A DNA stretch of 64,000 bases from a virus. Taxonomy: Duplodnaviria; Caudoviricetes. The DNA lies in IMG/VR virus record IMGVR_UViG_3300032007_001727, one strand, 5' to 3'. Below, in pieces: positions 6,125 to 63,428 of the stretch; positions within the stretch are counted from its first letter, which is position 1, and every line of letters begins with the position of its first letter. The notes below the pieces were generated by a model that made no database searches, had not been told where the DNA came from, and saw only the letters and a program-made list of their open reading frames with translations. Position numbers and translations under genes: made by a program.

Positions 6125-9100
6125 ATGGCAGATAATGCAAGAGGAATACACGTGAGTCCAGGTATATATACACGTGAAATTGATATGACATATGCTGTTC
6201 GTAGTTTAGGTATCACTACTCTTGGTGCAGTAGGTGAAACGCAGAAAGGACCGGCATTTCAGCCTATGGATATCTCAAATTGGCGTGAATTCCAAGAGAC
6301 TTTCGGCGGTACTAGCACTGAAAAATTCAAGGGTAGCCAATATCCAAAATACGAATTGCCTTACATTGCTAAGTCATATCTCACAGAATCCGAACAACTC
6401 AAGGTTGTCCGTGTGCTTGGCTTGAGCGGCTATAACGCAGGACCCGCATGGCTTGTTACCGCTTCATTGAACGGAGAAAACAAGAGGGCGGTTGCAGTTA
6501 TCCGTTCTAGAGGTACCTATCACCCTTATAATGCAAATTCGAGCGGCGATACCGCTTGTACTTGTGAACCTACGAAGTACGACACCTTAAAGTACGACGT
6601 AGGTGAGGTTTCGGGTCAGATGGTATCCGGCAAGTGTCAGAAGTTGGGTTATAACATGAGTGCTTTGGACATAGAGGAGTACATTCCACTCAATAGCGAC
6701 GGCAACGAGTGCGAAGGGTACGGTATGTCCGGTGGCAATGGCAGTTGGGAAATCTCACAGACCAACAGAGGAAGATTCAAGATTGTCGGTATCACCGGCG
6801 AACACGCAAATCCGACATCGCCAACTAAGGATTCTTCGGATTATTTCGAATATCCGGTTTCATTGAACCCATACGACAAGGAATATATCTTGAACGTGTT
6901 GGGCACGAAGGCTTATGACGGTGACGCACCGGTATTTGTTGAGTCATTGTATGACGTTGCGCTTGAGCAAGCCATTGCAAACGGTGACGTTGACCGCATT
7001 GACAGTGGCTTGACACCATTCAACGCTTATTTTACGGCAGACTTCTGCCACCATGAGCCAATCTACGGCATTGTAGAGAAGCCTCAGAGTTCACTTAACA
7101 GAAAGTATGTAGGAAGAAGGTATCTTGCCTCAAAGACGGCAACCGCTGACGGCATAACTTGTGTGGCCTATGACTATTCAAGCAACACTCCGGAGACATA
7201 CTATACACTTTGGAAGTCTCAAGATGAAGAAAGGAAATCAAAGGCTGTCAACCCACCAAGCCTAATGGCAGTTCAAACCGCAGAGTTTCAAAAGATTAAC
7301 AGTGAGTCTGCCGTTGTGGACACGGTCAAGACAACCGCTGAAACCACTTGGAACGACTTGGGTGTTAAGGACGCACCAAATCCATCGGCAGAAACGGGCT
7401 ATCACTTTAAACTCGTTGGCCGTTCAACCAAGTTTGTCGACGCAGCATTCAATGCCGTGCAAGAAAGCATGCTCGTTGGACAAATCTATACCGTAAGACA
7501 ATATACCACACAAGACGGAAAGAGACACTACTACTATACTTATTACAGCAAGAAGAGTGTTGACGAGGCATTTCCTAGTAGTGCACAGACCAACGTGGAG
7601 ACGGTGAACTACTACGGAAACTTGCTTAACGGCGGTGACAAGGGCAACACAGATGCCGGTTCGACGCTTGTCCTCAACAACGCAGACGGCTTGTATTACA
7701 GAATGAATTCCGCAAAGAATGACGTTACTTACGTAGAACTCGACATGAACGACTACAAGTCGGCATACCGCTACGCTTCAACTCCTTGGATTGTCTCCAA
7801 CTTGAAGGGTGACTTCAATCACATTGAAATGACGAAGTTGTTCCGTTTCCACACCATTTCCGACGGTGATAACGCAAACAGCGAGGTTAAGGTTTCAATT
7901 GAGAACATCAGACCGGACGAGGGTGTCTTCGACGTTGTTGTAAGAAAGATTGATGACGTTGACGAATCGATTGTTCCACTTGAGAAGTTCGGAAGATGTA
8001 ACATGATTCCGGGTGACTCAAACTACATTGCCTTCAAGATTGGCTCCTTCGACGGTGTTTATGAGAGCAAGTCCAAGTTCATTACCGTTGAGGTAAATGA
8101 GACAACTGCCGCTAGAACTTCAGTTCCTGCCGGTTTCTTGGGCTATCCTATTCCTTTGTACAGCGGTACGCCAATCAGCGGTGACCCACAGACCGGTGTC
8201 ACATTCCCGACCATCATGTACAACAGATTCTTCGATGAGGACATTAAGAACCGTAAGCAGTACTTCGGACTCTCGTCTTGGGTAGGTGTTGACATTGACA
8301 ACTTTATGTTCAAGGGCACAAAGGCTTACATCAACAATCCTCATTTCTTGAGCCACGGCTTCCACCTTGACTCTAGGCTTGACGAGTCCGCAAGGGCAGT
8401 TGACAGCAACGAGTTGACCGTAACGGTTGACGGTGAGAGTGGCTACACGTTCGACTCAGTTTCAACGAACGCAAGGACGCAAGTGCTCGACCAACCACCA
8501 ATCATAGGCAAGGAGACCGAAATGTACGGTTCAATCTACGAGTACGTCAACCTTAGAAAGTTCACCGTGTTCTTCTATGGCGGCTTTGACGGTTGGGACG
8601 TATATAGGGACCAAAGAACCAATACCGACGAGTTTAAGATGTCTCAATACAGAGGCTTCATCAACCAAGGCAGCGGTGAGGGTTATTCCTTCAACAAGAT
8701 AATGGACCCGGAGGCTTTGGCATTGAACCAAAACGGTATTACCTCCGACTGGTATGCTTATCTCAGCGGCATCAGACAATTTGCAAATCCGGAAGCAACC
8801 GACATTAACGTATTCTGTACCCCGGGTATCGACTACGTAAATCAGAAGTTGCTCGTCGAGGAGGCAATTGAAATGATTGAAGAGGAGAGAGCAGACAGTA
8901 TCTACGTCATAACCACTCCGGACAAGCCAAGCGGTGCGGGTGACTACGTTGACGAAATGTACACCCCCGATGACGCAGTCTATAACTTGGAAGACACTGA
9001 GATTGACTCCAACTATTCTTGCACCTATTATCCTTGGGTCAAGTATTTCGACGTTGAGAACAATCAGTACATCTTCCTTCCTCCTACAAAGGATGCCGTA

Positions 9101-10644: not shown

Positions 10645-11826
10645 TCAAATATTTTTTAAAAATTGAGTTAAATCTTCAAGATTGAAAAACATATTATTGT
10701 CATTATAAAGGCTTGATTCCAATGCATATTTCTTGAATTCAGCCGGAATATAGTAGATTAGTTGAATTGAGTTCTCCATACTGAGCCTATTCTTAACTGT
10801 GTCTCTGTGGATGGTTGAAGATACCATCTGTTCATCATAAATTCCACCGCTGAAGAAGTGTTGCTGACCTTGACATTCAATTGCAAGACTTAAACTTGGA
10901 ATGAATACGTCATATTTCATCTTATAGTTTGTCAAATCATTCTTAAGCCAATCAAAACTGACTTGTCTATCAAATGAAATGTTCTTTTCTTTCAGAAATA
11001 AACATAATTTTTCCTCCAATTTGCTAGTTGAACATCTTGGGCATCCGCTTTTATTATATAAATGATTAAACGGCTTCACTTTAAAGTCACCGTGAATGGG
11101 ACAAGTGATAATAACGTCGGTTTTATTGTTAATGTAATCTACTTTTGAATAATCGTACTTGTTTCCGTGTATTTTTTTAGCCTTTTCAATGAAAGTGTCT
11201 GAGTCGAGGGATAAAGTCTTGGCAACCTTGTTAAGGCCGCAAAGCGGACATCCGTTACCACTTAGATGATAACTAGCCTTTTGTTTGAACTCTCCGTGTT
11301 GCGGGCATATAATAACAAGAGGTTCGAACGGCGATTTATATTCACTCCTTGAATAGTCATACTTGTTCCCATGAACCGTTTTGGCCTTCTTGATGAAGTC
11401 ATCAGTGGTCATTACAGTGTGTGTTTTTTCAATTCCACACCTAGGGCATCCCTTACCTTGCAAGTGTACGTTAGGTTTTTGTTCAAATTCCCCGTGCTTG
11501 GGACAAATTATCTTGACCAAAGTATTAGTGTTAACATATTCAACCATTGAATAGTCATATTTGTCCCCATGTACACCATTAGCCTTCTTGATGAACGTTT
11601 CAGTTGTATCGGAACAAAGCCTTTTACCCGCTTCCGTCTTGCATTTTGGACAACCTTGTCCGCGAAGGTGGGCATTTGGTCTTTGTTTGAACTCTCCGTG
11701 TTCCGGACATATAATATCTACAAGCGTTTGACTATTCACATATTCAACCTTGGAGTAGTCATACTTGTTTTTATGTTTTTCACTTGCTTTTGCGATAAAT
11801 TCTTCTTTTGTCATCTTTTTTCCCAT
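10645..11826 (-). CDS. Putative homing endonuclease: 4 Zn-ribbon repeats plus nuclease domain
   Basis: HGDKYDYS..EY...ICP.HGEF.Q.P..HL.G.GCP.C x4; YDVFIP...IECQGQQHF; start MGKK at 11826 preferred. Confidence 0.8.
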   Translation of the reverse strand: MGKKMTKEEFIAKASEKHKNKYDYSKVEYVNSQTLVDIICPEHGEFKQRPNAHLRGQGCPKCKTEAGKRLCSDTTETFIKKANGVHGDKYDYSMVEYVNTNTLVKIICPKHGEFEQKPNVHLQGKGCPRCGIEKTHTVMTTDDFIKKAKTVHGNKYDYSRSEYKSPFEPLVIICPQHGEFKQKASYHLSGNGCPLCGLNKVAKTLSLDSDTFIEKAKKIHGNKYDYSKVDYINNKTDVIITCPIHGDFKVKPFNHLYNKSGCPRCSTSKLEEKLCLFLKEKNISFDRQVSFDWLKNDLTNYKMKYDVFIPSLSLAIECQGQQHFFSGGIYDEQMVSSTIHRDTVKNRLSMENSIQLIYYIPAEFKKYALESSLYNDNNMFFNLEDLTQFLKNI

Positions 11827-11918
11827 AAAAAAATGTTTATCTGCATAAAATATACAGATAAACATTTAAAAATGCAAGAAAAACTAAACAAATTTTGTAA
11901 AAAACAGACAAAAAAAGT

Positions 11919-14724: not shown

Positions 14725-15864
14725 ATGTCATACGGTAGGGAACAAGTGATTGAAATGTGCAGACAAGTACATGGAAATAAGTACGACTATTCAATAACAA
14801 ACGATTGCAGAAATAAATTGGACAAAATTAAGTATGTTTGTCCGATTCACGGTGTTGTCGAACAAATTTTCAATAATCACTTGCAAGGTAAAGGATGTCC
14901 AAAGTGTGCAACTGAAAGCATGAGAGAGAAAAAGACACCAACAAAAGAAGAATTTCTAAGTAAGGCTGAAAAGGTTCATAATTTAAGTGAATATGATTGG
15001 AGTGAATTTAATCTGCTAAATAGGGACAGTAAGGGAAGAGTTCAATTTTGTTGTAGAAAACATGGAAAATATTTTGATTGGCCTTCAAATTTCTTAAAAG
15101 GTCACGGTTGCCACATTTGTTACGGAAAACGAAAGAATGATGAAGAAGTCAAGGAAGAATTGCTGAGATTACATCCTAAATTGGATTTTTCAGAGGCAAA
15201 TTACTCCGAGAAGGATTCTCTAGGCAGATTGAAGGTTTTGTGCCCAAAACACGGGGAACAAAAGATAACATATTGGAACCTAAGAAACGGGCAAGGATGT
15301 TATTGGTGCGGCAGGGAGGCAACTGCCATTAAAAACACAATGACAAATGAAGAATTTATCAATAAGGCAACCAAGATATTTGGTGAGGATTATACTTATG
15401 AACGTCTTGATATGTTTAATAGGGATGAAAATGGTAAGGTTACAATAACTTGTCCCATTCATGGCGATTTTAAGGTTCTCCCGGGTAATTTTTTGAACGG
15501 TGTCGGTTGCCCCGTGTGTTCTGAAAGTAGTCTTGAAGGTGAAATTAGAAGATTTTTGAAAGAAAATGCTGTTATTTTTGAAAGACAGAAGAGATTTGAT
15601 TGGTTGGGAAGGCAAAGTTTGGATTTTTATTTGCCGGAATATAACGTAGCAATTGAGTGTCAAGGTGGGCAGCATTTCAAGTCGGTCGGAAAGTTTGGTG
15701 GCGATAAAACTTTTAAGAGAGTTGTTGAACTAGACGAGAGGAAAAGGGTTCTTTGCGGGGAAAACGGCGTTAGGTTGCTGTATTATTCAAACGAGGCAAT
15801 GGATTTTCCGTATGAGGTGTGTACGGACAAGGAAGAATTGCTGAAAGAAATAAGGGGAGAATAA
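14725..15864 (+). CDS. Putative homing endonuclease: 4 Zn-ribbon repeats plus nuclease domain
   Basis: C..HG...G.GC..C repeats; LDFYLPEYNVAIECQGGQHF; C-terminus nearly identical to that of 12558..13469 (ERKRVLC.ENGVRLLYYSN). Confidence 0.8.
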   Translation: MSYGREQVIEMCRQVHGNKYDYSITNDCRNKLDKIKYVCPIHGVVEQIFNNHLQGKGCPKCATESMREKKTPTKEEFLSKAEKVHNLSEYDWSEFNLLNRDSKGRVQFCCRKHGKYFDWPSNFLKGHGCHICYGKRKNDEEVKEELLRLHPKLDFSEANYSEKDSLGRLKVLCPKHGEQKITYWNLRNGQGCYWCGREATAIKNTMTNEEFINKATKIFGEDYTYERLDMFNRDENGKVTITCPIHGDFKVLPGNFLNGVGCPVCSESSLEGEIRRFLKENAVIFERQKRFDWLGRQSLDFYLPEYNVAIECQGGQHFKSVGKFGGDKTFKRVVELDERKRVLCGENGVRLLYYSNEAMDFPYEVCTDKEELLKEIRGE

Positions 15865-23156: not shown

Positions 23157-24496
23157 GAGGAAACCCACCAATCTTCAGTTGGTGGGAGGAATCGCACATT
23201 TTTATACCTTTTTTTTCTTATTATTAGTAATTTTTTAACTTTTGATACTATTTATATATATAAATACCTTCACTAAGGGAAACTATGGTAATAAAGACCT
23301 ACAACATAAGGATTAATGGTGAACAAGGGTTCACGGCGTTTTGGCTCACGCTTCTGCGTGAGACAAGGGACGCATATAACCTCTGTTCCGACACCATCAT
23401 CACCGAAAAGGTGAAAATAGGTCTGACAGCCATTCACAACGCTTGTTATGACAAACTGAGAAGCAGTTTCCCTTCGCTCCCTTCACAAGCCATCATACGA
23501 GTGCAGAAAGAAGTGTTGCAAGCGTTTAAGTCAAAAAAGACAAACAAGCACAAAGGCTCTGCGCCGCACAAAACTTCACTGTCTCTCACTCTCGACAAGA
23601 GGCTTTACTCGAATTTCACCGCTGAAGGTATATCACTTACAAGCGGAAAGTCAAACTGCCGTGAACGGTTCACGTTCAAACCGTACCAAAAAATCGCAGA
23701 AATGTTTGCAACGTCAGTTGCAAAAGACCCGACGATTTTCTACAAGGACGAGTCCTTGTGGCTCTCCATACCGTTCGAGGTACAAGGGATAATGGTTCAG
23801 AATGACCGCTCCATAGGTGTAGACCTCGGCATGAAGAGGTTCTTCGTTACCTCTGAAGGCAAGTACTTCCAAGACAAGGAGTACCTTATGCAAAGGAGGA
23901 AACTGCGTTACCTCAAGAGGTGCTTGCAGAGCAAGAACACCAAGGGCGCAAAGTCCCACCTAAGTCGGATTTCGAGAAAGGAGCACAACATTTCAAAGAA
24001 CGAGTGTTACAAGGCGGTCAACGCCTTGTTGCAGTCCACGGACTGCGGTTACATCGTTATGGAAGACCTATCCAAGATAAAGGTTAAGACCTCCAAGAGC
24101 AAGGACGGTTTCAAGCGCAAGAGGCACAACAATGCATTATCGCAAGTACCGTTCTATACATTCAAGTACATACTGACATACAAGGCAACGCTTGCAGGCA
24201 AGCAAGTGGTATCAGTTTCTCCGGTCAACACAAGTCAGAATGACTGCCGCAGTGGTAGCAAGAACGGCACCCGCAAGGGGTGCAGATATTACACCAACGA
24301 TGGCTTTGTCTTCGACGCTGACTGGAATGCGTCAGTTAACATTGCACTTCGTGCAGAACACCCAACCTCGACACCTCTTCCGATTGACGGAAGACTTGTT
24401 GCCTTGGTTGGCAGGGCACCGTCAACTGCCCAAACGCTCAAAACACGCTAAAGGTTTTCTGCAAGCCCACGAATCTTTAGTTCGTGGGTAGTTGAC
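23157..24496 (+). mobile_element. Non-autonomous IS200/IS605 (IS1341-like) element carrying tnpB only
   Basis: Matching subterminal hairpins CCCACCAA-TCTTCAG-TTGGTGGG (23164-23186) and CCCACGAA-TCTTTAG-TTCGTGGG (24466-24488); right end GTAGTTGAC; left boundary approximate. Confidence 0.85.
23285..24451 (+). CDS. tnpB: TnpB RNA-guided nuclease
   Basis: RuvC-I IGVDLG, RuvC-II IVMEDL, RuvC-III DADWNASVNI; degenerate Zn finger. Confidence 0.9.
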   Translation: MVIKTYNIRINGEQGFTAFWLTLLRETRDAYNLCSDTIITEKVKIGLTAIHNACYDKLRSSFPSLPSQAIIRVQKEVLQAFKSKKTNKHKGSAPHKTSLSLTLDKRLYSNFTAEGISLTSGKSNCRERFTFKPYQKIAEMFATSVAKDPTIFYKDESLWLSIPFEVQGIMVQNDRSIGVDLGMKRFFVTSEGKYFQDKEYLMQRRKLRYLKRCLQSKNTKGAKSHLSRISRKEHNISKNECYKAVNALLQSTDCGYIVMEDLSKIKVKTSKSKDGFKRKRHNNALSQVPFYTFKYILTYKATLAGKQVVSVSPVNTSQNDCRSGSKNGTRKGCRYYTNDGFVFDADWNASVNIALRAEHPTSTPLPIDGRLVALVGRAPSTAQTLKTR

Positions 24497-50831: not shown

Positions 50832-53039
50832 ATGGCAAAAATCAATGATGATTTACTGAAATATTTTGATGGCGATGAAATGGCATCAAATGTTTGGCTG
50901 AATAAATATGCAATGAGGGATGAAAACGGTGAATTAATAGAATCGACCCCGGATGACATGCATAGAAGAATGGCAAAGTACTTTGCCGATGTTGAGGAAA
51001 AGTATGAGTTTAACGAAGAGGAAAACGTTAAACTGAAATTGAGTGAATATGGCTACAACAGAGGCAAACTTACCGAAGAAAAAATCTATTCTCTTTTCAA
51101 GGACTTTAAATATATTGTTCCGGGCGGTTCTGTCATGTGTGGTTTAGGCTCACCGCTAGCAATTAGCCTCTCTAATTGCTGGGTAATTGATGGTCCAGGT
51201 GACAGTATAGATGACATCTTTAGGGTTTGCAATGAACAGTCTCAGTTGTTTAAGAGAAGAGGTGGAAACGGGTTCGATATATCGAAGTTGAGACCAAAGG
51301 GTGCGAAGGTAAGCAATTCTGCAAAATATTCCACCGGTGCCGTATCCTTCATGGACTTGTTCAGCAACGTGACAAATACCATCGCCCAAAGCGGAAGAAG
51401 GGGTGCCCTTATGCTTTCAATGCACGTGGAACATCCGGATGCGGAGGAGTTTATTGAGAAGAAGCAAGACCTTTCAAAGGTTACCGGTGCAAATATCTCG
51501 TTGCAGATAGGTGATGACTTTATGAATGCCGTGGAGAATGATGAGGACTTTATTCAGAGGTGGCCAATCACTTGTGAGGTCAACGTTGACCCTAGTTGGG
51601 AATATGACACCTTGTACGAGTCCAAGGATTCGAACGGTAAGACTTGCTATTTCAAGAAGGTAAAGGCGAAGAGGTTGTGGGATAAATTAATCCATTGTGC
51701 TTGGAATACGGCCGAACCCGGCATCATCTTCAAGACAAACCACTATGAATATTCACCGGACGGTGTGTATGATGAATTCCGTGGCAGTTCCACGAATCCG
51801 TGTGGAGAGATTTTTATGCATGAGGATTCTTGCAGACTCATCCACGTAAACCTTTCTTCTTTTATTGATGACGAGTATTCTGAGAATGCAAAGGTGAACG
51901 ACGAGAAGTTGTATGAAGTGTTCTATGAGGCCACTAGGTTAGGTGATGATTTGGTTGATTTGGAAAGGGATGCCATTACAAAGATTCTCAATAAGATTGA
52001 AAAAGACGGTGACAAGAATAATAATGAATATAAACTGTATAGCCGCTTACTTAAGAATACATTAGCCGGAAGAAGGTGCGGCGTTGGATTCTTCGGATTG
52101 GCTGACGCTGTCGCAAAATTGGGCTTTAAGTTTGATTCTGATGAGAGCCTTAAGGCAATTAACCATATGATGAGGATTATGTTCGTTGCAGAAATTGACT
52201 CAGAGATTGACATGTCAATCACAAGGGGTAGTTTCCCGAACTATAATCCGGAATTGGAGAAGGCCGGAAACAGATGGTATAACCACTTGAAGGATGATTT
52301 CAAGCACTTATACGACAGAATGATGAAATATGGCAGGAGAAACGTATCATTCAGTACGGCAGCACCTACCGGTTCTGTTGCGATGCTTGCACACTGCTCT
52401 AGCGGTATAGAACCCATATTTATGCCATTCTACACAAGGAGGGTTAAATGCACGACACCAAACGACAAGGTTGACTTTGTTGACAAGGACGGTGAGAAGT
52501 TCACGGAATATATTACGGTACACCATCCTTTGGAAGAGTGGGCAAAGAACACATTGAACGTCGATACAAGCGAATTGAAGGTAAAGGATTGGCAAGACAT
52601 ATATGAGAAGTCACCTTGGTATAAGTCAACCGCAAACGATATCGATTGGGTAAAACGTGTTAAAATCCAAGCAATATGCCAGTGCTATGTGACACATAGC
52701 ATTTCTAGTTGCGTTGTTAAAGATACATTCATTGAACTTGAAAATGGCGGCTACGCATATATTGATGAGTTATGTGACTTTTCAGCCATAAACGAAGGGG
52801 AATTTAAGGATAACACATCGTTTGAAACATTGGTTAAGACTTGTGACGGAACTAATAATAGGATTAAGTCATTCTACAATAACGGAGTAAAAGATGTGTT
52901 TGAGTTAAAACTTACGAATGGGTTATCAGTCGAGACCACGTCAAATGAACGTTTCATGGTCTATAACGATGAAAAATCAGAATTTGATTGGAAATATCTT
53001 TATGATATTAAAGAGGGTGACATAATAAAAATTCAATAA
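50832..53039 (+). CDS. nrdJ: Class II (B12-dependent) ribonucleotide reductase, N-terminal part fused to a split N-intein
   Basis: LSNCWV, RRGG.G.D.S.LRP, RRGALM, TNPCGE, APTGS..M...SSGIEP; extein ends HSISS, then intein Cys1 at 52710. Confidence 0.92.
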   Translation: MAKINDDLLKYFDGDEMASNVWLNKYAMRDENGELIESTPDDMHRRMAKYFADVEEKYEFNEEENVKLKLSEYGYNRGKLTEEKIYSLFKDFKYIVPGGSVMCGLGSPLAISLSNCWVIDGPGDSIDDIFRVCNEQSQLFKRRGGNGFDISKLRPKGAKVSNSAKYSTGAVSFMDLFSNVTNTIAQSGRRGALMLSMHVEHPDAEEFIEKKQDLSKVTGANISLQIGDDFMNAVENDEDFIQRWPITCEVNVDPSWEYDTLYESKDSNGKTCYFKKVKAKRLWDKLIHCAWNTAEPGIIFKTNHYEYSPDGVYDEFRGSSTNPCGEIFMHEDSCRLIHVNLSSFIDDEYSENAKVNDEKLYEVFYEATRLGDDLVDLERDAITKILNKIEKDGDKNNNEYKLYSRLLKNTLAGRRCGVGFFGLADAVAKLGFKFDSDESLKAINHMMRIMFVAEIDSEIDMSITRGSFPNYNPELEKAGNRWYNHLKDDFKHLYDRMMKYGRRNVSFSTAAPTGSVAMLAHCSSGIEPIFMPFYTRRVKCTTPNDKVDFVDKDGEKFTEYITVHHPLEEWAKNTLNVDTSELKVKDWQDIYEKSPWYKSTANDIDWVKRVKIQAICQCYVTHSISSCVVKDTFIELENGGYAYIDELCDFSAINEGEFKDNTSFETLVKTCDGTNNRIKSFYNNGVKDVFELKLTNGLSVETTSNERFMVYNDEKSEFDWKYLYDIKEGDIIKIQ
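52710..53039 (+). other. Split intein N-fragment (109 aa)
   Basis: Block A CVVKDTFI, NGVKDVFELKLTNG, block B TTSNERF, end DIKEGDII then stop. Confidence 0.85.
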
Positions 53040-53112
53040 TTCTTTAAAAAAATTTATCTCATTGTATATTTATATATATAAATAATTTTAATAAATATGC
53101 AATGAGATAAAT

Positions 53113-54339
53113 ATGAATGAAAGTCAGAAAAAGAGGATACAAAAACTAATAGAAATGGGTTTGTATCATGAGCCAAAAATAATAAAGGGCGTATGTAAAT
53201 TATGTGGAAAGGAATATGAATATGACGAGAACAATAAAGTAGTTAGACAATACTTTACTAACGGCTTTTGTTGCAATAAATGTTATCAAGATTCCGGTTT
53301 AAAGTTAATTAATAAAATTAAAACGACACTGACGAATGCAAATATGCCGTTTAATGATGAAAACATCTTAGAAGTTTTTTCAGAGTATCAATCAAATAGA
53401 ACTAAAAAGTGTGCTGACACTTGGAGGAAGACAATGGTTGAGAAATATGGAACAGACTATGCCACCAAGAGAGGAAAAATGGGATGGGATGGCCACAAGA
53501 AGAAATTTTTAATTGAAAACAACATAATTTCAGAAGATGATTTTTCAAAATTAAGTGAGGAGGAAATTGATGACTTATTTATTAGTAACTTCAACAAAAT
53601 AACCAAACATGGTGAACACGTTGTTAATGGTAGAAAAAGTAAATACGGAGAAGATTACAAGAAATCATTCCAAGATGCACTAGTAAAAAGCGTAACCAAC
53701 CTAATGGAGAAGAAATACGGGAAAGAATATTTAGATGGACTATCTGATTCTGAATACCAAGAGGTTTACAATGAATGTTCAACTGAAATAAATTCGAAGA
53801 AGGTTGTAAAGGATAGAATTGAATGGAAGAAGAGTACATTGTTGAACCACGGCTTCGATAAAGATTCATTGGACAAATGCAGTTCAGATGAAATTGAAAA
53901 GTTCTATTCAGAATATTTGTCAAAGAGAAAGACAAAACTTGTTTGTTCCGAAAAGAATGGGTATAAACATTCTGAAAAGGGTTGGTACAATTTTGATAAG
54001 TGGGATAAGTTTTTCTACCGTAGTAGTTGGGAAAAGCGATTATGTGAAGAATTGGACGCTAATTGTGATTTAATTGAAAATGTCATGGTTCCGGAACCAA
54101 TCTATTATAAGTTAAATGGTGTTACACATGCCTATTTTTGTGACTTTGAAATTTTATTTAAAAATGGTTTCAGACTATTCATAGAAGTCAAACCGGAAGG
54201 AAAATTAAAAGAATTAGTAAATGAGTGTAAAATAAATGCGGCAAAGGAAAAATGGGGTGACTCATTTATTGTTGCAACTGAGCATGAAATTTTTTCAAGT
54301 GATTTAAAAAATTTATTAATGAAATATGGAAAAGATTAA
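53113..54339 (+). CDS. Free-standing putative homing endonuclease (TnsA-like PD-(D/E)XK domain) between the nrdJ halves
   Basis: N-terminal CKLCG..FCCNKC Zn finger, repeated EKYG motifs, C-terminal YRSSWE...EP..Y....H.Y..DF...IEVKP. Confidence 0.75.
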   Translation: MNESQKKRIQKLIEMGLYHEPKIIKGVCKLCGKEYEYDENNKVVRQYFTNGFCCNKCYQDSGLKLINKIKTTLTNANMPFNDENILEVFSEYQSNRTKKCADTWRKTMVEKYGTDYATKRGKMGWDGHKKKFLIENNIISEDDFSKLSEEEIDDLFISNFNKITKHGEHVVNGRKSKYGEDYKKSFQDALVKSVTNLMEKKYGKEYLDGLSDSEYQEVYNECSTEINSKKVVKDRIEWKKSTLLNHGFDKDSLDKCSSDEIEKFYSEYLSKRKTKLVCSEKNGYKHSEKGWYNFDKWDKFFYRSSWEKRLCEELDANCDLIENVMVPEPIYYKLNGVTHAYFCDFEILFKNGFRLFIEVKPEGKLKELVNECKINAAKEKWGDSFIVATEHEIFSSDLKNLLMKYGKD

Positions 54340-55348
54340 AGAAATTGAGTCTATTTGTCTAAGTGATGAAAGAATACCGTTTGAATTTAGAAAAAATGGT
54401 GACTCTGTGAAAGATTTTCTTGAAACCATTAAGAACAATGGTTTTGTTGTGACGAACAAGGATGTTAAAAGACTCATGAAAATGTATGACACAAAAAACG
54501 AAACATTTTCAATTGTTGAAAACATTTCTTATGTTGGGGTGAAGGAAACCGTTGATTTGGAGGTTGAAAATACTCATAGTTATGTAGCAAATGGAATAGT
54601 TGCCCATAATACAATAAATCTTCCGAACGACGTGAAAGAAAGCGAGGTGGCGGAAATATATAGGGAATCTTGGAAACAAGGACTTAAGGGTATTACCGTA
54701 TATAGGGATGGATGCAGAAGCGGTGTCTTTGTATCAGTTGACAAGAAGGACACACCGAAGAAGGACTTGAACCTTGAACTCATCGAGAGCGGTACCGCAA
54801 AGAGGAGGCCAAAGACATTGGAGGCCAAGATTATACGCTTCAGCAACAAGGGTGAAAAATGGGTAGGCATAATAGGAATGCTAGACGGAAAACCGTATGA
54901 ACTCTTCACCGGAATGCTTGATAAACTGAATATCCCGAATTGGGTTGACAACGGTTCCATCATCAAGAACTATGATGAGATTGAGACTGACGGTGAAGTG
55001 AAGAAGAAATCACGATACGATTTCTGCTATAATGACAAGGACGGGTATAAGGTATGTATCGAAGGTATATCTAGGATATTTAACCCCGAGTTTTGGAATT
55101 ACGGCAAACTAATCAGCGGCTTGTTAAGGCATAATATGCCCATACCTTATATAATAAAGGTGATTTCAACCCTTAAGTTGGATGATTCCTCCATAAACAC
55201 TTGGAAGAACGGTGTTGTTAGGGTTCTCAGAAAGTTTGAAGACTCTGCTGAATTGGAGGGTGAAAAATGCCCGGAATGTGGTGGAAGGCTAGTTAGGGAC
55301 GGCGGATGCATTCACTGCGTTGACTGCGGATACAGTAAGTGTTTATAA
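54326..55348 (+). CDS. nrdJ: Split C-intein fused to the NrdJ C-terminal part
   Basis: Blocks F/G TVDLEVENTHSYVANGIVAHN ending at 54610, then TINLP...LKGITVYRDGCR, RPKTL, C-terminal Zn ribbon CPECG...C..CGYSKC. Confidence 0.9.
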   Translation: MEKIKEIESICLSDERIPFEFRKNGDSVKDFLETIKNNGFVVTNKDVKRLMKMYDTKNETFSIVENISYVGVKETVDLEVENTHSYVANGIVAHNTINLPNDVKESEVAEIYRESWKQGLKGITVYRDGCRSGVFVSVDKKDTPKKDLNLELIESGTAKRRPKTLEAKIIRFSNKGEKWVGIIGMLDGKPYELFTGMLDKLNIPNWVDNGSIIKNYDEIETDGEVKKKSRYDFCYNDKDGYKVCIEGISRIFNPEFWNYGKLISGLLRHNMPIPYIIKVISTLKLDDSSINTWKNGVVRVLRKFEDSAELEGEKCPECGGRLVRDGGCIHCVDCGYSKCL

Positions 55349-56684: not shown

Positions 56685-56717
56685 GGAGTTGACAATTGTC
56701 AACTCCTTTTTTTTTTT
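56685..56717 (+). terminator. Rho-independent terminator
   Basis: GGAGTTGACA/TGTCAACTCC plus T11; insulates the CRISPR locus from the upstream operon. Confidence 0.85.
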
Positions 56718-56737
56718 GCAAAATAATTGTGATAATA

Positions 56738-56769
56738 TTTGTTTTTTTCAAATTTTTTATATATCTTTG
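56738..56769 (+). promoter_or_regulatory. Bacteroidota-type promoter driving the RNA-array-effector unit
   Basis: TTTG at 56738, TATCTTTG at 56762, 20-nt spacing. Confidence 0.75.
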
Positions 56770-56770
56770 C

Positions 56771-56954
56771 ACCGTTAGTATTAAAACACTAGCCTACCCA
56801 CAGTGTAAGTGGGGACGTTAAGTCCGCGTACTAGGCTGTTGAGGAGTGCTTTAGTGAAAGTATCTTTCTCACGTCTAGGTTTAAACGGAAAGAAAATGTG
56901 CAAGCAGGACTTGCGCAACCATTATTAAAATTTAGTGGAAACATTTGATACAAC
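56771..56954 (+). ncRNA. Putative structured scaffold RNA (tracr/omegaRNA-like)
   Basis: Non-coding and GC-richer than other intergenic regions; stems AGCCTA/TAGGCT, CCCAC/GTGGG, GGAC/GTCC, GTGCTTT/AAAGTAT, GTGCAAG/CTTGCGC, CCATTA/TAGTGG; ends in repeat-like TACAAC. Confidence 0.55.
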
Positions 56955-56985
56955 TTATTGATTGTCATTCAATTACGTGTGGTGT

Positions 56986-57454
56986 GGTGTTAATTCCACT
57001 TATCTTAAGGTGGGTTACAACTACATCCCAATACTTTACTACGTGAACTTGGTGTTAATTCCACTGATTGTAAAGTGGATTACAACCTTAGAGAGGAATA
57101 ATAAAAATCCAAAGAAGGTGTTAATTCCACTGATTGTAAGGTGGATTACAACCAACTCCCAAAGAAAATACACAAAAAGTTTGGTCTTAATACCACTTAT
57201 TTTAAGGTGGATTACAACACATGAATTAAGTTCATAGATGGTGTTAATTCCACTCATCTTAAAGTGGATTACAACAATCTAAATGAATATCAACACCCGT
57301 GAAAATGGTGTTAATTCCACTGATTTTAAGGTGGATTACAACCTACCTATCACTCAGAATCAAGTGTTAATTCCACTGATTGTAAGGTGGATTACAACTG
57401 TCATTGGGAATTGCCGGTGTTAATTTCACTTATCTTAAAGTGGATTAATACAAC
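56986..57454 (+). CRISPR. CRISPR array: 8 repeats (consensus GGTGTTAATTCCACTGATTGTAAGGTGGATTACAAC, 36 nt) and 7 spacers
   Basis: Repeats start at 56986, 57051, 57117, 57183, 57240, 57307, 57363, 57416 (last one degenerate, 39 nt); unique spacers of 29, 30, 30, 21, 31, 20, 17 nt. Confidence 0.92.
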
Positions 57455-57490
57455 AATGTATTTGAGTTACAACAAATTAGATTGTCAAAT

Positions 57491-58993
57491 ATGACAAAAG
57501 AAAAAATCTTACGTGGTATTAAATACCGCTTTTTTCCAACGGAAAAACAAAAAACATACATTAACGCTATGTTTGGTGCAAAACGTTTTTTTTATAATAA
57601 AACGTTAGAAACCTATTTGTCCCTTGAAAAAGAGAACCGTGAAATAAAAGAGTATAATAGCACCCATGAGGATAAGAAGGAACCAATTGCGTATTCTTTG
57701 TTATTAAACAACGGAAAACCAAACCCAAACTATAGCAAAAACTCTCTAATACAAAGGGGATTTGATGGCTTTTATGGTGAAGTAAAAGATTATTCTTGGC
57801 TAAAGAATTATTCATCTACCATATATCAAAATGAGATTGCTAATTTGGGTAATTCTTGGAAGACTTTCTTTAAGTCCCTAAAGACGAAAAATAAAGTAGG
57901 AAAGCCTAAAATGAAAAGAAGGAATTCGGTTAATTCCATAACCTTGCAGAACACATCTTCCTTGAAGGACGGTAAGAATATTATGGATTGGAAGAATAGC
58001 CGAATAAAAACCCCGGGTTTTAATAAATTGGGTTGGTGCAAATGTGAATTGCACAGAAGATTCAAAGGCATGGTCAAGGAGACAACAATATCTAAGGATA
58101 TTGATGGTTCATACTATATTTCCCTAATAGTTGAGAGTGAAGGCTCATACCCACAGCCTAGCGGTGAAGTCACAAAGGAAAATACTATAGGTATTGATTT
58201 TGGCCTAAAGACACTTGCTACCATTTCCAATGCAAACGATGATAGCAATAACTATGAAAAGATTGTTCCATCATATTTTGCAAAGGTATGTGATTTGGAG
58301 AAAAAAATCAATAGGCTCAAGGCAAAGAGAACTCTATGTCAAGCAACACTGACAAGGGAGGGGTGTGAATCCAAGGTCTTAACCATAAAGCAGATGGATA
58401 AGGCTAGAACCAACAATAAAAGGGCTTTCAGTGGATACCATATCACCTATTCAAAAGGTTATGAGGAATATACCAAGAGGATAAACAAACTTACGGTCAG
58501 AATCAATAACATTAAGAAAAACTACACTGGTGAGGAGGCAAGTTCGATTGTAAATCGTGATTGTGCCAATGCAATCTGCGTTGAAACCCTTGATATAAGG
58601 GGCATGTCCATAAGAAATAAGACAAGGGAGGCCGAAGGCAAGAAGATTCCAAATAAAGTCAAAAGGAGAAGGAAAATGGCCCATAAATTAGGACAATTGG
58701 CCATCGGTAGTATAATCTCTCAAATAGAATATGACTCCATAAAGGCAGGAAAACACTTTATAAAGGCCCCGGCAAACTATGCTTCCACAAAGATTTGCAA
58801 TTGCTGTGGTCATAAACTTGAAGACATTGGACTAGATGTTCGGAAATGGGTTTGTCCGGTTTGTGGACAAGAGCATGACCGTGATGTAAATGCCGCAAAA
58901 AATTTGGCAAAGTATGCCTATGCCTTAAAGAATGACATCGATTTGAAGGATATTTACCACAAAGTTGAGGCTGAGGTAATGGCTGAACGATAA
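57491..58993 (+). CDS. CRISPR-associated TnpB-like RuvC nuclease (candidate miniature type V effector, 500 aa)
   Basis: N-terminal TnpB HTH GIKYRFFPTEKQK...FGAKRFFYN; RuvC-I IGIDFG, RuvC-II ICVETL, Zn finger CNCCG..CPVCG, RuvC-III HDRDVNAAKNL; starts 36 nt after the array. Confidence 0.85.
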   Translation: MTKEKILRGIKYRFFPTEKQKTYINAMFGAKRFFYNKTLETYLSLEKENREIKEYNSTHEDKKEPIAYSLLLNNGKPNPNYSKNSLIQRGFDGFYGEVKDYSWLKNYSSTIYQNEIANLGNSWKTFFKSLKTKNKVGKPKMKRRNSVNSITLQNTSSLKDGKNIMDWKNSRIKTPGFNKLGWCKCELHRRFKGMVKETTISKDIDGSYYISLIVESEGSYPQPSGEVTKENTIGIDFGLKTLATISNANDDSNNYEKIVPSYFAKVCDLEKKINRLKAKRTLCQATLTREGCESKVLTIKQMDKARTNNKRAFSGYHITYSKGYEEYTKRINKLTVRINNIKKNYTGEEASSIVNRDCANAICVETLDIRGMSIRNKTREAEGKKIPNKVKRRRKMAHKLGQLAIGSIISQIEYDSIKAGKHFIKAPANYASTKICNCCGHKLEDIGLDVRKWVCPVCGQEHDRDVNAAKNLAKYAYALKNDIDLKDIYHKVEAEVMAER

Positions 58994-59008
58994 GGATAAT
59001 ATGAAAAA

Positions 59009-59036
59009 AAGAGCAACCATAACTGATTGCTCTTAT
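59009..59036. terminator. Bidirectional terminator
   Basis: AAGAGCAACCA...TGATTGCTCTT between convergent genes. Confidence 0.7.
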
Positions 59037-60990: not shown

Positions 60991-61460
60991 CATTATGACG
61001 AGGGAAGAATTCATAAAGAAAGCCCAAGAGGCTCACGGTGATAAATACGATTATTCGAAAATTCCAAGCGAACTGAAGGCAAGCGACAACGTTGTGATTG
61101 TTTGCCCCATTCATGGTGAATTCACACAGAATGCTAGGACACATTACAGAGGTCACGGTTGTCCAAACTGTAAGGCGGAAAAGACAAGACAATTCTTGAC
61201 ATTGACAACTGAGACCTTTCTGAAGAAGTATCATGATAAATTCGGTGATGAGTATGATACTTCATTGGTTGATTACAAAGATTTTGAGACAAAGGTTAAA
61301 ATGATTTGTCCAATTCATGGCGTATGGGATTAACATCTGCTGAATGAAAAATATTCATTTATATCAAAAAATATTCAAAAATAAGTAAACTTTTTAAAAT
61401 TACGTGATATTTATATATGAATATTAAGATAAATAATAAAAGAATAAGTGAACTTATTTT

Positions 61461-61787: not shown

Positions 61788-63428
61788 ATGCTTATTCAGA
61801 GTAAGTACACAAAGATATTCCATTCAAAGGACTTAACTCGTCAGAAATATGATGAGTTATATGACTTTGCTGTGCTTATTCGAAACCATAAAAACACAGT
61901 ATCACAATACGTCAACGACAATCTCTTACATTTCTTGGAATACAATAAATTTCAATTCCTTAAGGAAATGAGAGAACGTTTCAAGAATGTAATACCAAGT
62001 TCATTTGATGCACAACTCTATACACAAGTATTCACTTGCTATCAGAATAAATTTGATGGAATACAACGCAAACTGATATTTGAAGTAAAAACATTTAAAG
62101 GGTTTGAGTTCTACAAGCGTGATACAAAGAAGAATAAGAAAGGTGACTTAAAGAAAGTAATAGCCGAAAAGAAACAAACACCATTATCTAACTGCCTCAC
62201 TTATCTTGCAAGATACGGAAATGAAAACACAATAGACTATATAAGTAGTAATATAGATGTTTGTGATGAGAAGAAACGTGAGTTCTATAACAACATATTA
62301 AGATGCTGTAATAAATTCGGATTTGAACGGTTGTATCGATTAGCATTGAACAAAAGACAACGTGTTGTTAAGCATTATTCTGAATATCCTATTGAATTCA
62401 AGTCATTAACGTTCAATGGTAGGTGTAGGAAGAAAAGGATAATTGACTACAACAGAAAGTTTGACTCTGTTATCAATTCATTCATAAGCCTTAGTGGTAT
62501 TGGACGTAAATCATTTGATATACCGATTACATTCAACAAAGGTTGGCACGGAAATATGAAGGATTACAGAAAGAAGAATCCCGATTACGAATATACAATC
62601 ACTTTCAATGAGAAAGAACATCAAGTAAACATCCATTTATGCAAGGATGGAGAAAGGTATATTCCCCAAGCCAATGGCAATACAATAGGTATTGATGTCA
62701 ATTGCAAGCATAACTTATTCAGCCTATCAAATGAAGCAACTTACGATTATGATAGAAAACTCGTCAATGATTTCTGTAAATTATCACTTGAAATTGACAA
62801 ACTTAAAGAAAATGATAAAGAATACAAGGTCGGTAAGCGTAAACAGCAGAAACTTGATACTCTCAAATCCAAGATGATTAAGTCTGAGCAGCAACTTATT
62901 GCTGATATGTGCAAGACGTTACAATCGCAAGGTGTTGGGCATATTGTGATGGAAGACCTTGATAATGGTTTCGGTAAGTGCTATGTTAAAGACAAGGATA
63001 ATGAGGATATTAATTACAACAGAAAGGTTAAGTTTCTTGGCTTGAGTAGTCTTAAACAAGAAGTTGAGCATATTGCAAGAAAATATGATATTGCGGTTTC
63101 AACTGTTCAAGCAAGTTATACATCGAAGATGTGTCCTATGTGTGGATGTATTGAGGATGAGAACAGACCAAACCAAGAGACTTTTGAGTGTATTAAATGT
63201 GGACATAAAGATAATGCAGACTTTAATGCTGCAAAGAACATAAGGAACAGAGTGCTCGTAACCGTGTTACAAGATTTGCTCTTAAAACAAAAGGATAATG
63301 GTGCTTTTGAGCCTAAGAAACTTAAACGTGAGAAGGTAAAGGAGGTATTGTTATCGTTTCGAAGAAGCCTACAAAATGTAGGAAGTGAATGTACAGAAAG
63401 TAGTGTGACTACTTTTGACTATGTTTAA
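61788..63428 (+). CDS. tnpB: TnpB RNA-guided nuclease (IS607-associated, 546 aa)
   Basis: IGIDVN, IVMEDL, YTSKMCPMCG...FECIKCG, NADFNAAKNI. Confidence 0.9.
   Translation: MLIQSKYTKIFHSKDLTRQKYDELYDFAVLIRNHKNTVSQYVNDNLLHFLEYNKFQFLKEMRERFKNVIPSSFDAQLYTQVFTCYQNKFDGIQRKLIFEVKTFKGFEFYKRDTKKNKKGDLKKVIAEKKQTPLSNCLTYLARYGNENTIDYISSNIDVCDEKKREFYNNILRCCNKFGFERLYRLALNKRQRVVKHYSEYPIEFKSLTFNGRCRKKRIIDYNRKFDSVINSFISLSGIGRKSFDIPITFNKGWHGNMKDYRKKNPDYEYTITFNEKEHQVNIHLCKDGERYIPQANGNTIGIDVNCKHNLFSLSNEATYDYDRKLVNDFCKLSLEIDKLKENDKEYKVGKRKQQKLDTLKSKMIKSEQQLIADMCKTLQSQGVGHIVMEDLDNGFGKCYVKDKDNEDINYNRKVKFLGLSSLKQEVEHIARKYDIAVSTVQASYTSKMCPMCGCIEDENRPNQETFECIKCGHKDNADFNAAKNIRNRVLVTVLQDLLLKQKDNGAFEPKKLKREKVKEVLLSFRRSLQNVGSECTESSVTTFDYV

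Follow-up and report, generated by a model that had tools for sequence, protein, structure and literature searches.

A TnpB-family nuclease, a scaffold RNA and a CRISPR-type array form a probable TranC-like unit in a large rumen phage

The 64,000-nucleotide (nt) stretch of Caudoviricetes DNA analysed here (IMG/VR record IMGVR_UViG_3300032007_001727; hereafter the window) carries, at 56685-59034 on the + strand, a compact unit made up of a terminator, a promoter, a structured RNA, an array of the CRISPR type, an open reading frame (ORF) of the TnpB family and a terminator hairpin. This is very probably a self-contained RNA-guided DNA-targeting unit of the TranC/type V-U kind, without adaptation genes, in a large Bacteroidota-infecting rumen phage. 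A first-pass annotation, made without database searches, had proposed a miniature CRISPR-type unit, carried by a phage and based on a TnpB-family nuclease, and all the elements that it listed, including the eight-repeat array, were recovered at or near where it had placed them; the structured RNA is nearer 210 nt (about 56775-56985) than the ~185 nt it had proposed. The components of the unit are as follows.

56685-56716, + strand: intrinsic terminator of the preceding gene (nine-pair hairpin at 56685-56706, then T10)
56738-56769, + strand: Bacteroidota-type promoter, TTTG-N20-TATCTTTG, located by pattern scan
56775-56985, + strand: predicted scaffold RNA of ~210 nt, like a tracrRNA (trans-activating CRISPR RNA), putatively omegaRNA-derived; 5′ end approximate
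56918-56952, + strand: candidate anti-repeat within the scaffold, forming a duplex with repeat nt 1-29
56986-57454, + strand: CRISPR-type array of eight repeats and seven spacers, repeat consensus GGTGTTAATTCCACTGATTGTAAGGTGGATTACAAC
57491-58993, + strand: predicted TnpB-family RNA-guided nuclease of 500 amino acids (aa), ATG start at 57491; 503 aa if translation starts at an alternative TTG at 57482
59009-59034, no strand assigned: downstream terminator hairpin (eleven pairs, T runs on both sides), beginning 15 nt past the stop codon

By sequence and by fold the nuclease is nearest TnpB, and not any tested Cas12 profile or the TranC protein LaTranC. Pfam identifies HTH_OrfB_IS605, OrfB_IS605 and a Cas12f1-like_TNB zinc finger (PF12323 and PF07282 exceed their cut-offs, PF01385 falls below its own), and the NCBIfam model guided_TnpB matches at 199 bits, its cut-off being 100. 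All NCBIfam Cas12 models stay far under their cut-offs (c2c8, 74 bits against 350), and the NCBIfam Cas12f models give no match to the window protein and 34-41 bits against a cut-off of 450 for its relatives, so that these curated profiles do not place it in Cas12f (type V-F). The best PADLOC profiles, Cas12u4 (135 bits) and Cas12f (124 bits), both score below guided_TnpB, and in a PDB sequence search ISDra2-type TnpB reaches ~100 bits against 44 bits for LaTranC. Membership of an already named Cas12 subtype, singled out by the first-pass annotation as telling against its proposal, was thus found with neither the NCBIfam nor the PADLOC profiles, nor in PDB. An AlphaFold (AF2) model built from the family alignment (pLDDT 81) retrieves TnpB structures with Foldseek (8h1j, 8iaz and 8exa, TMt 0.76-0.82), with Cas12f at ~0.6 and LaTranC at ~0.5, and ESM Atlas neighbours are TnpB clusters only.

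The features that had been read directly from the translation, an N-terminal helix-turn-helix (HTH), a RuvC acidic triad and a zinc finger, are borne out by the Pfam domains and by an alignment of 12 family members, in which the triad (D236, E365, D465) and the zinc-finger cysteines (C436, C439, C455, C458) are invariant. The HTH/RuvC/TNB architecture, the profile score, the D-E-D triad and the CxxC...CxxC motif together place the protein in the TnpB superfamily. Two suspected insertions likewise appear in alignment to ISDra2-type TnpB, where residues 50-98 correspond to 19 residues and residues 278-386 to 55, giving insertions of about 30 and about 54 residues. The description ‘barely diverged’ applied to the protein in the first-pass annotation therefore holds for its architecture and not for its sequence, which has the two insertions and at most about 28% identity to anything outside its own clade in phages and IMG/VR.

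Relatives are very few. About 13 related proteins (33-58% identity) turned up among 15 billion. Nine further proteins of 486-514 aa (41-58% identity) came from a word-indexed search over 5.8 billion clusters, below which matches fall sharply to ordinary ~390-aa TnpBs at ~27%; an exhaustive HMMER search over 1.84 billion representatives added P0122 (42%), P0123 (34%) and one fragment only, and a further member, at locus L094, came from metagenome contigs (related proteins and loci are denoted by P and L numbers). All relatives lie on phage-like contigs, most of them with ruminant dataset labels (record names STEW19, XIEF21). No family members were found in GenBank phages or IMG/VR, where the best matches are generic TnpBs of about 28% identity or less, or in 185,579 species genomes, where generic TnpBs reach about 30% at most. 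A quick maximum-likelihood tree that included 70 of the nearest TnpBs groups the 13 family rows as a single clade (SH-aLRT 99), divided into two subclades, and resolves no sister group. Two short contigs gave no usable context: that of P0011 (1150 bp) encodes one protein in which the middle 145 residues of a family nuclease (70% identity) occur alongside a phage-integrase domain, and that of P0121 (L254; 729 bp) encodes a protein whose last 182 residues are 97% identical to the window protein and whose zinc-finger-like N-terminus is unrelated. Both may be chimeric assemblies or disrupted copies.

Close homologues lacking arrays, another outcome that would have counted against the first-pass proposal, were not encountered: all nine related proteins with readable flanks keep an array, with 36-nt repeats and spacers of ~30 nt. 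Arrays lie beside P0008 (L001), P0005 (L003-L008), P0006 (L009), P0007 (L010), P0010 (L002), P0122 (L013), the L094 protein and P0123 (L011, L012), with five repeats in L001, seven in L009, ten in L094 and at least five each in L011 and L012; the contigs of L003-L008 and L010 begin within the array, and those of L002 and L013 end within the first repeat. The two subclades of the tree match two layouts. In the window subclade the promoter is followed by scaffold, array and gene; in the deeper branch (P0123, P0122, P0010 and the L094 protein) it is followed by the gene, the scaffold directly 3′ of the stop codon and the array, so that the scaffold occupies the position of a TnpB omegaRNA and the array lies where the single guide would be. 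L002 and L013 were considered as array-less forms with an omegaRNA only, a reading that was ruled out, as these contigs stop inside the first repeat and L094 has a ten-repeat array downstream. Because of these contig ends, only two layouts are recognised and not a three-stage series.

The window array has 36-nt repeats, the last extended to 39 nt by a 3-nt insertion, separated by spacers of 29, 30, 30, 21, 31, 20 and 17 nt in order. The repeat folds as a hairpin (-8.7 kcal/mol), and its 3′ half occurs in eight copies in the array and effectively nowhere else in the window (0.76 expected by chance), which contains no other array. Between loci the repeat sequence varies with the hairpin kept, and spacer sets are wholly distinct; each of the seven window spacers occurs once, without a copy elsewhere in the window or at the loci of relatives. 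The array of L009 has six identical repeats and a seventh carrying two changes, and that of L094 has degenerate repeats and a 21-nt spacer.

The scaffold (56775-56985) has a minimum free energy of -56 kcal/mol (z = -2.5 against shuffles) and no second copy in the window, and no Rfam family, CRISPR-DR families included, matches it or the repeats. It is homologous to RNA that lies 5′ of the arrays in L001 and L009, and also to RNA immediately 3′ of the stop codon in L094, L002, L013 and L011. Scaffolds of both layouts share an A-rich stretch, then a hairpin of variable sequence, then a segment with ACC and the anti-repeat, and in most loci the scaffold ends in GAWACAAC, like the 3′ end of the repeat. 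The CCTACC hairpin (from 56793 in the window) shows compensatory changes in three of five pairs across seven loci. The candidate anti-repeat at 56918-56952 pairs with its own repeat at -20.6 kcal/mol, compared with -13.4 or weaker for the repeats of five other loci; its counterparts are the anti-repeat matches of L001, L094 and L011, and in five of six loci the own repeat is the best partner of the scaffold 3′ module. The argument for an anti-repeat is made from this consistent position and from the co-variation of repeat and anti-repeat between loci. A built-in ‘guide 0’ between the GAWACAAC scaffold end and the first repeat is a matter of speculation, and this putative guide matched nothing anywhere.

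The upstream terminator insulates the unit from the preceding gene. The motif TTTG-N20-TATCTTTG, which follows the Bacteroides promoter consensus and is taken as a Bacteroidota-type promoter, occurs at nine sites in the window against 1.7 expected (pattern scan). In L001 and L009 it also stands ahead of the scaffold, in L013 ahead of the gene, and the TATCTTTG box recurs in L094. An extended consensus, TTTG(T/G)TTTTT...TTTTTTATATAT(A/C/T)TTTG, is near-identical at six + strand sites (12481, 37798, 40455, 44742, 56738 and 60959), which suggests a shared class of phage promoters read by a Bacteroidota-type sigma factor. At the other end of the unit, the hairpin at 59009-59034 was scored on the minus strand by the terminator scan and is probably a bidirectional terminator; since it begins 15 nt past the stop codon there is no room for a downstream omegaRNA, as the first-pass annotation had noted.

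Taken together, these components are consistent with the following scheme. One phage-type promoter would probably drive a single precursor transcript spanning scaffold, array and nuclease mRNA, in which the scaffold would represent the former body of a TnpB omegaRNA. The anti-repeat would pair with each 36-nt repeat, the two pieces rebuilding the omegaRNA fold, as the co-variation between loci would imply, and the precursor would be cut into repeat-spacer units. By analogy with TnpB, Cas12f and TranC, the nuclease would bind the dual RNA and cut DNA complementary to the 17-31-nt spacer beside a short 5′ motif. The lineage would have arisen once from an IS200/IS605-type TnpB, with the ancestral order (gene, scaffold, array) kept in the deeper branch and the scaffold-array block lying between promoter and gene in the window branch. 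The likely role, again by analogy, is in conflict with other mobile elements or co-infecting phages; the first-pass annotation had named host genes as possible targets as well.

The unit adjoins a 384-aa gene whose homologue in L001 has a Pfam match to T4 gp13 (the window copy has no Pfam match at E 0.01 or better). This gp13-like gene is 81-82% identical across the window, L001 and L094, whereas the window nuclease is 50% identical to that of L001 and about 41% identical to that of L094. Relative to the gp13-like gene, the unit is upstream in the window and L001 and immediately downstream in L094, L002 and L013; in L011 it comes two genes past a terminase-like gene. Judged from the difference between these identities and from its changing position, the unit behaves as a fast-evolving accessory module at a variable site in a phage backbone that is conserved elsewhere. 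As had been stated in the first-pass annotation, cas1, cas2 and cas4 are absent from the annotated window flanks (Pfam matches of ten neighbouring ORFs and ten other large window ORFs), and no cas genes were found in the Pfam-annotated flanks of L001, L002 and L011; over these flanks, the linked cas1 and cas2 of an adaptive CRISPR-Cas locus are missing. No Y1_Tnp domain was found by Pfam in neighbouring window ORFs either, and with no adjacent tnpA, and an array replacing the single guide, the unit does not have the composition of an IS200/IS605 mobile element. Only L010 has a TnpA fragment nearby: 66 aa of a Y1 (IS200/IS605 TnpA) transposase at 1819-2019, ~170 nt downstream of a family nuclease with an upstream array. 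It may be left over from the transposon ancestry or have inserted there independently.

Several points weigh against an active targeting unit. Transcription, processing and cleavage are predicted features, the absence of cas1, cas2 and cas4 applies to annotated flanks, and single-locus anti-repeat matches exceed shuffles only modestly. The window array is eroded, with repeats 1, 4 and 8 degenerate and spacers as short as 21, 20 and 17 nt, and the window copy may for this reason be less active than, for example, that of L009. None of the tested spacers had a protospacer in GenBank phages, IMG/VR or the retrieved loci: the whole window array gave chance matches only against GenBank phages (e.g. 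phiX174), six exact spacer cores had zero matches in IMG/VR, and all family spacers compared with the window and 253 loci gave nothing convincing. The sole spacer match above background, between an L094 spacer (6163-6193) and a large surface-protein gene of Selenomonas ruminantium HD4 (L192 1119-1146; 24/28 positions), is probably chance or uninformative.

The same erosion, together with the 3-nt insertion in the last repeat, would be expected if the array were a static or decaying relic of fixed inherited guides, or disused, with the nuclease using a built-in guide or regulating phage or host genes. The degenerate repeats and 21-nt spacer of L094, the lack of adaptation genes in annotated flanks and of protospacers, and the identity of arrays across samples (L003-L008 from six runs; L011 and L012) would also fit. 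We regard this explanation as unlikely, as the ORF is intact with all catalytic and zinc residues conserved, six of the seven repeats of L009 are identical and the seventh has two changes, and guides of 16-20 nt suffice for TnpB-type enzymes. Moreover, spacer sets are completely different in related phages whose gp13-like genes are 81-82% identical, and the arrays therefore turn over.

The varying position of the unit, on either side of the gp13-like gene or near a terminase-like gene, would alternatively suit a selfish mobile TnpB element whose guides serve homing or retention of the cassette among phage genome sites and not the phage. The Y1 TnpA fragment just downstream of the L010 nuclease and the other TnpB-like genes of the window phage point the same way. 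This is improbable given that no tnpA and no recognisable IS200/IS605 end lies beside the window copy, that a terminator stands 3′ of the stop codon where the right end and omegaRNA would be, that neither repeat nor scaffold has a second copy in the window, and that IS elements do not feature multi-spacer arrays. A further possibility, that the array is an RNA decoy (RNA anti-CRISPR) whose repeats mimic a host CRISPR, such as Bacteroidota type VI-B with GTTG...CAAC, and titrate host Cas proteins, the nuclease being incidental, draws on the 36-nt repeats, the ~30-nt length of most spacers and the GTTG...ACAAC termini in some relatives (L003). The likeness to type VI-B repeats is a putative one, a literature search for a Cas13b repeat having returned nothing comparable. 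Repeats that co-vary with the anti-repeat of the adjacent scaffold, the presence of the array beside a nuclease at every locus and in both layouts, and the lack of any Rfam CRISPR-DR family at the array make a decoy highly improbable, and an RNA-guided targeting unit is preferred over all three.

It is conceivable, if somewhat short of probable, that in this family a CRISPR effector arose from TnpB independently, within phages only and outside the described TranC and Cas12 clades, and is caught in both its ancestral and its rearranged order. In phages with an 81-82% identical neighbouring structural protein, the two orders flank opposite sides of the same structural gene. The first-pass annotation had called the TnpB-to-Cas12 transition possibly undescribed; no tested Cas12 profile fits the protein, but the step from a TnpB omegaRNA to a tracrRNA plus array has already been described as the TranC class in the reports cited below.

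The window contains, as the first-pass annotation had indicated, two other TnpB-related ORFs, both only distantly related to the nuclease of the unit.

23285-24451, + strand: third TnpB-family ORF of the window (388 aa; guided_TnpB 125 bits)
61788-63428, + strand: second TnpB/Cas12-like ORF (546 aa), 2.8 kb downstream of the unit

The ORF at 23285-24451 is essentially unrelated in sequence to the CRISPR-linked nuclease. That at 61788-63428 has a Cas12f1-like TNB domain, a guided_TnpB score of 79 bits (below the cut-off) and a weak Cas12f2 match, is distant from the 500-aa nuclease (28% identity over 74 aa), and has no array or repeat adjoining it. The ribonucleotide reductase large subunit (50832-55348, + strand) is split by an intein, with one Intein_splicing half closing ORF 50832-53039, the other opening ORF 54326-55348 and, between them, a 408-aa ORF with a TnsA-like endonuclease domain. 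DUF723/zinc-ribbon ORFs, likely homing-endonuclease-like, are found at 10645-11865 (- strand), 14725-15864 (+ strand) and 60995-61333 (+ strand), and in L001 at 7632-8588, between the CRISPR unit and the gp13-like gene.

The family adds a very rare lineage, ~13 proteins in 15 billion, all on phage-like contigs, to the recently defined intermediates between transposons and CRISPR systems. The occurrence of both gene orders in closely related phages, with a homologous helper RNA, makes the ‘omegaRNA split’ model testable with natural variants, and the nuclease, at 500 residues and with scaffold and repeat defined, is a candidate for compact genome editing. The unit also suggests a use of RNA-guided nucleases by giant rumen phages in conflicts with targets as yet unsampled. 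If an independent origin were correct, the family would provide a closely spaced natural series from guide RNA to tracrRNA plus array and a way to test spacer gain by arrays without Cas1-Cas2.

Among known systems, IS200/IS605 TnpB (ISDra2, 8h1j and 8exa; ISFba1, 8iaz) provides the best sequence and fold matches. The order of domains (HTH, WED/REC, RuvC, zinc-finger TNB) and the D-E-D triad are shared, and the scaffold of the deeper branch begins right 3′ of the stop codon, as omegaRNAs do. The unit differs from IS200/IS605 TnpB in lacking tnpA and transposon ends, in its guide array and two insertions, and in having, in the window, the RNA 5′ of the gene. Cas12f (type V-F) and type V-U4 effectors resemble it as miniature, tracrRNA-dependent, TnpB-derived type V effectors (the tracrRNA being predicted here), but the Cas12f and Cas12u4 profile scores (124 and 135 bits) are below that of TnpB (199 bits), and in fold TMt is ~0.6 compared with ~0.8. 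Cas12f loci usually carry cas1, cas2 and cas4, which the annotated flanks of the window unit do not.

A split of the TnpB omegaRNA into a tracrRNA and an array-borne CRISPR RNA (crRNA) defines TranC (Jin et al., Cell 2025, doi 10.1016/j.cell.2025.09.004, via PMC13565253, PMC13639567 and bioRxiv 10.64898/2026.03.27.714800). In these sources, more than 20 clades are described, some in phages (e.g. CauTranC9), clade 3 differs from ISDra2 TnpB mainly by a larger segment between RuvC motifs (both bioRxiv 10.64898/2026.03.27.714800), and TranC arrays are short, with 3-20 repeats of 32-38 nt; the solved TranC is LaTranC (PDB 9jfo/9jfq). On these descriptions the window unit shares with TranC a TnpB-sized, TnpB-like effector, a predicted split omegaRNA, a short array and the lack of adaptation genes, and the enlarged segment between RuvC motifs recalls clade 3. 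The effector is closer to TnpB than to Cas12 subtypes and adjoins a CRISPR array, and a tracrRNA/crRNA split is predicted computationally from the homology of the scaffold to RNA in the omegaRNA position and from the own pairing being best in five of six loci. The window protein reaches 44 bits to LaTranC, the only solved TranC, against ~100 bits to ISDra2 TnpB, and with no relative above about 30% identity in the 185,579 species genomes it is not close to the TranCs encoded there. The two orders seen in the window lineage (gene-scaffold-array and scaffold-array-gene) were not found described in the portions of the TranC literature examined. By its features the window locus would work like a TranC. 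A functional precedent for the proposed role is offered by the Cas12r-CRISPR system of Thermus Lalka phages, a phage-expressed type V system whose spacers target other mobile elements, as reported from experiments (Trofimova et al., bioRxiv 10.64898/2026.04.20.719267); it belongs to another host and another lineage.

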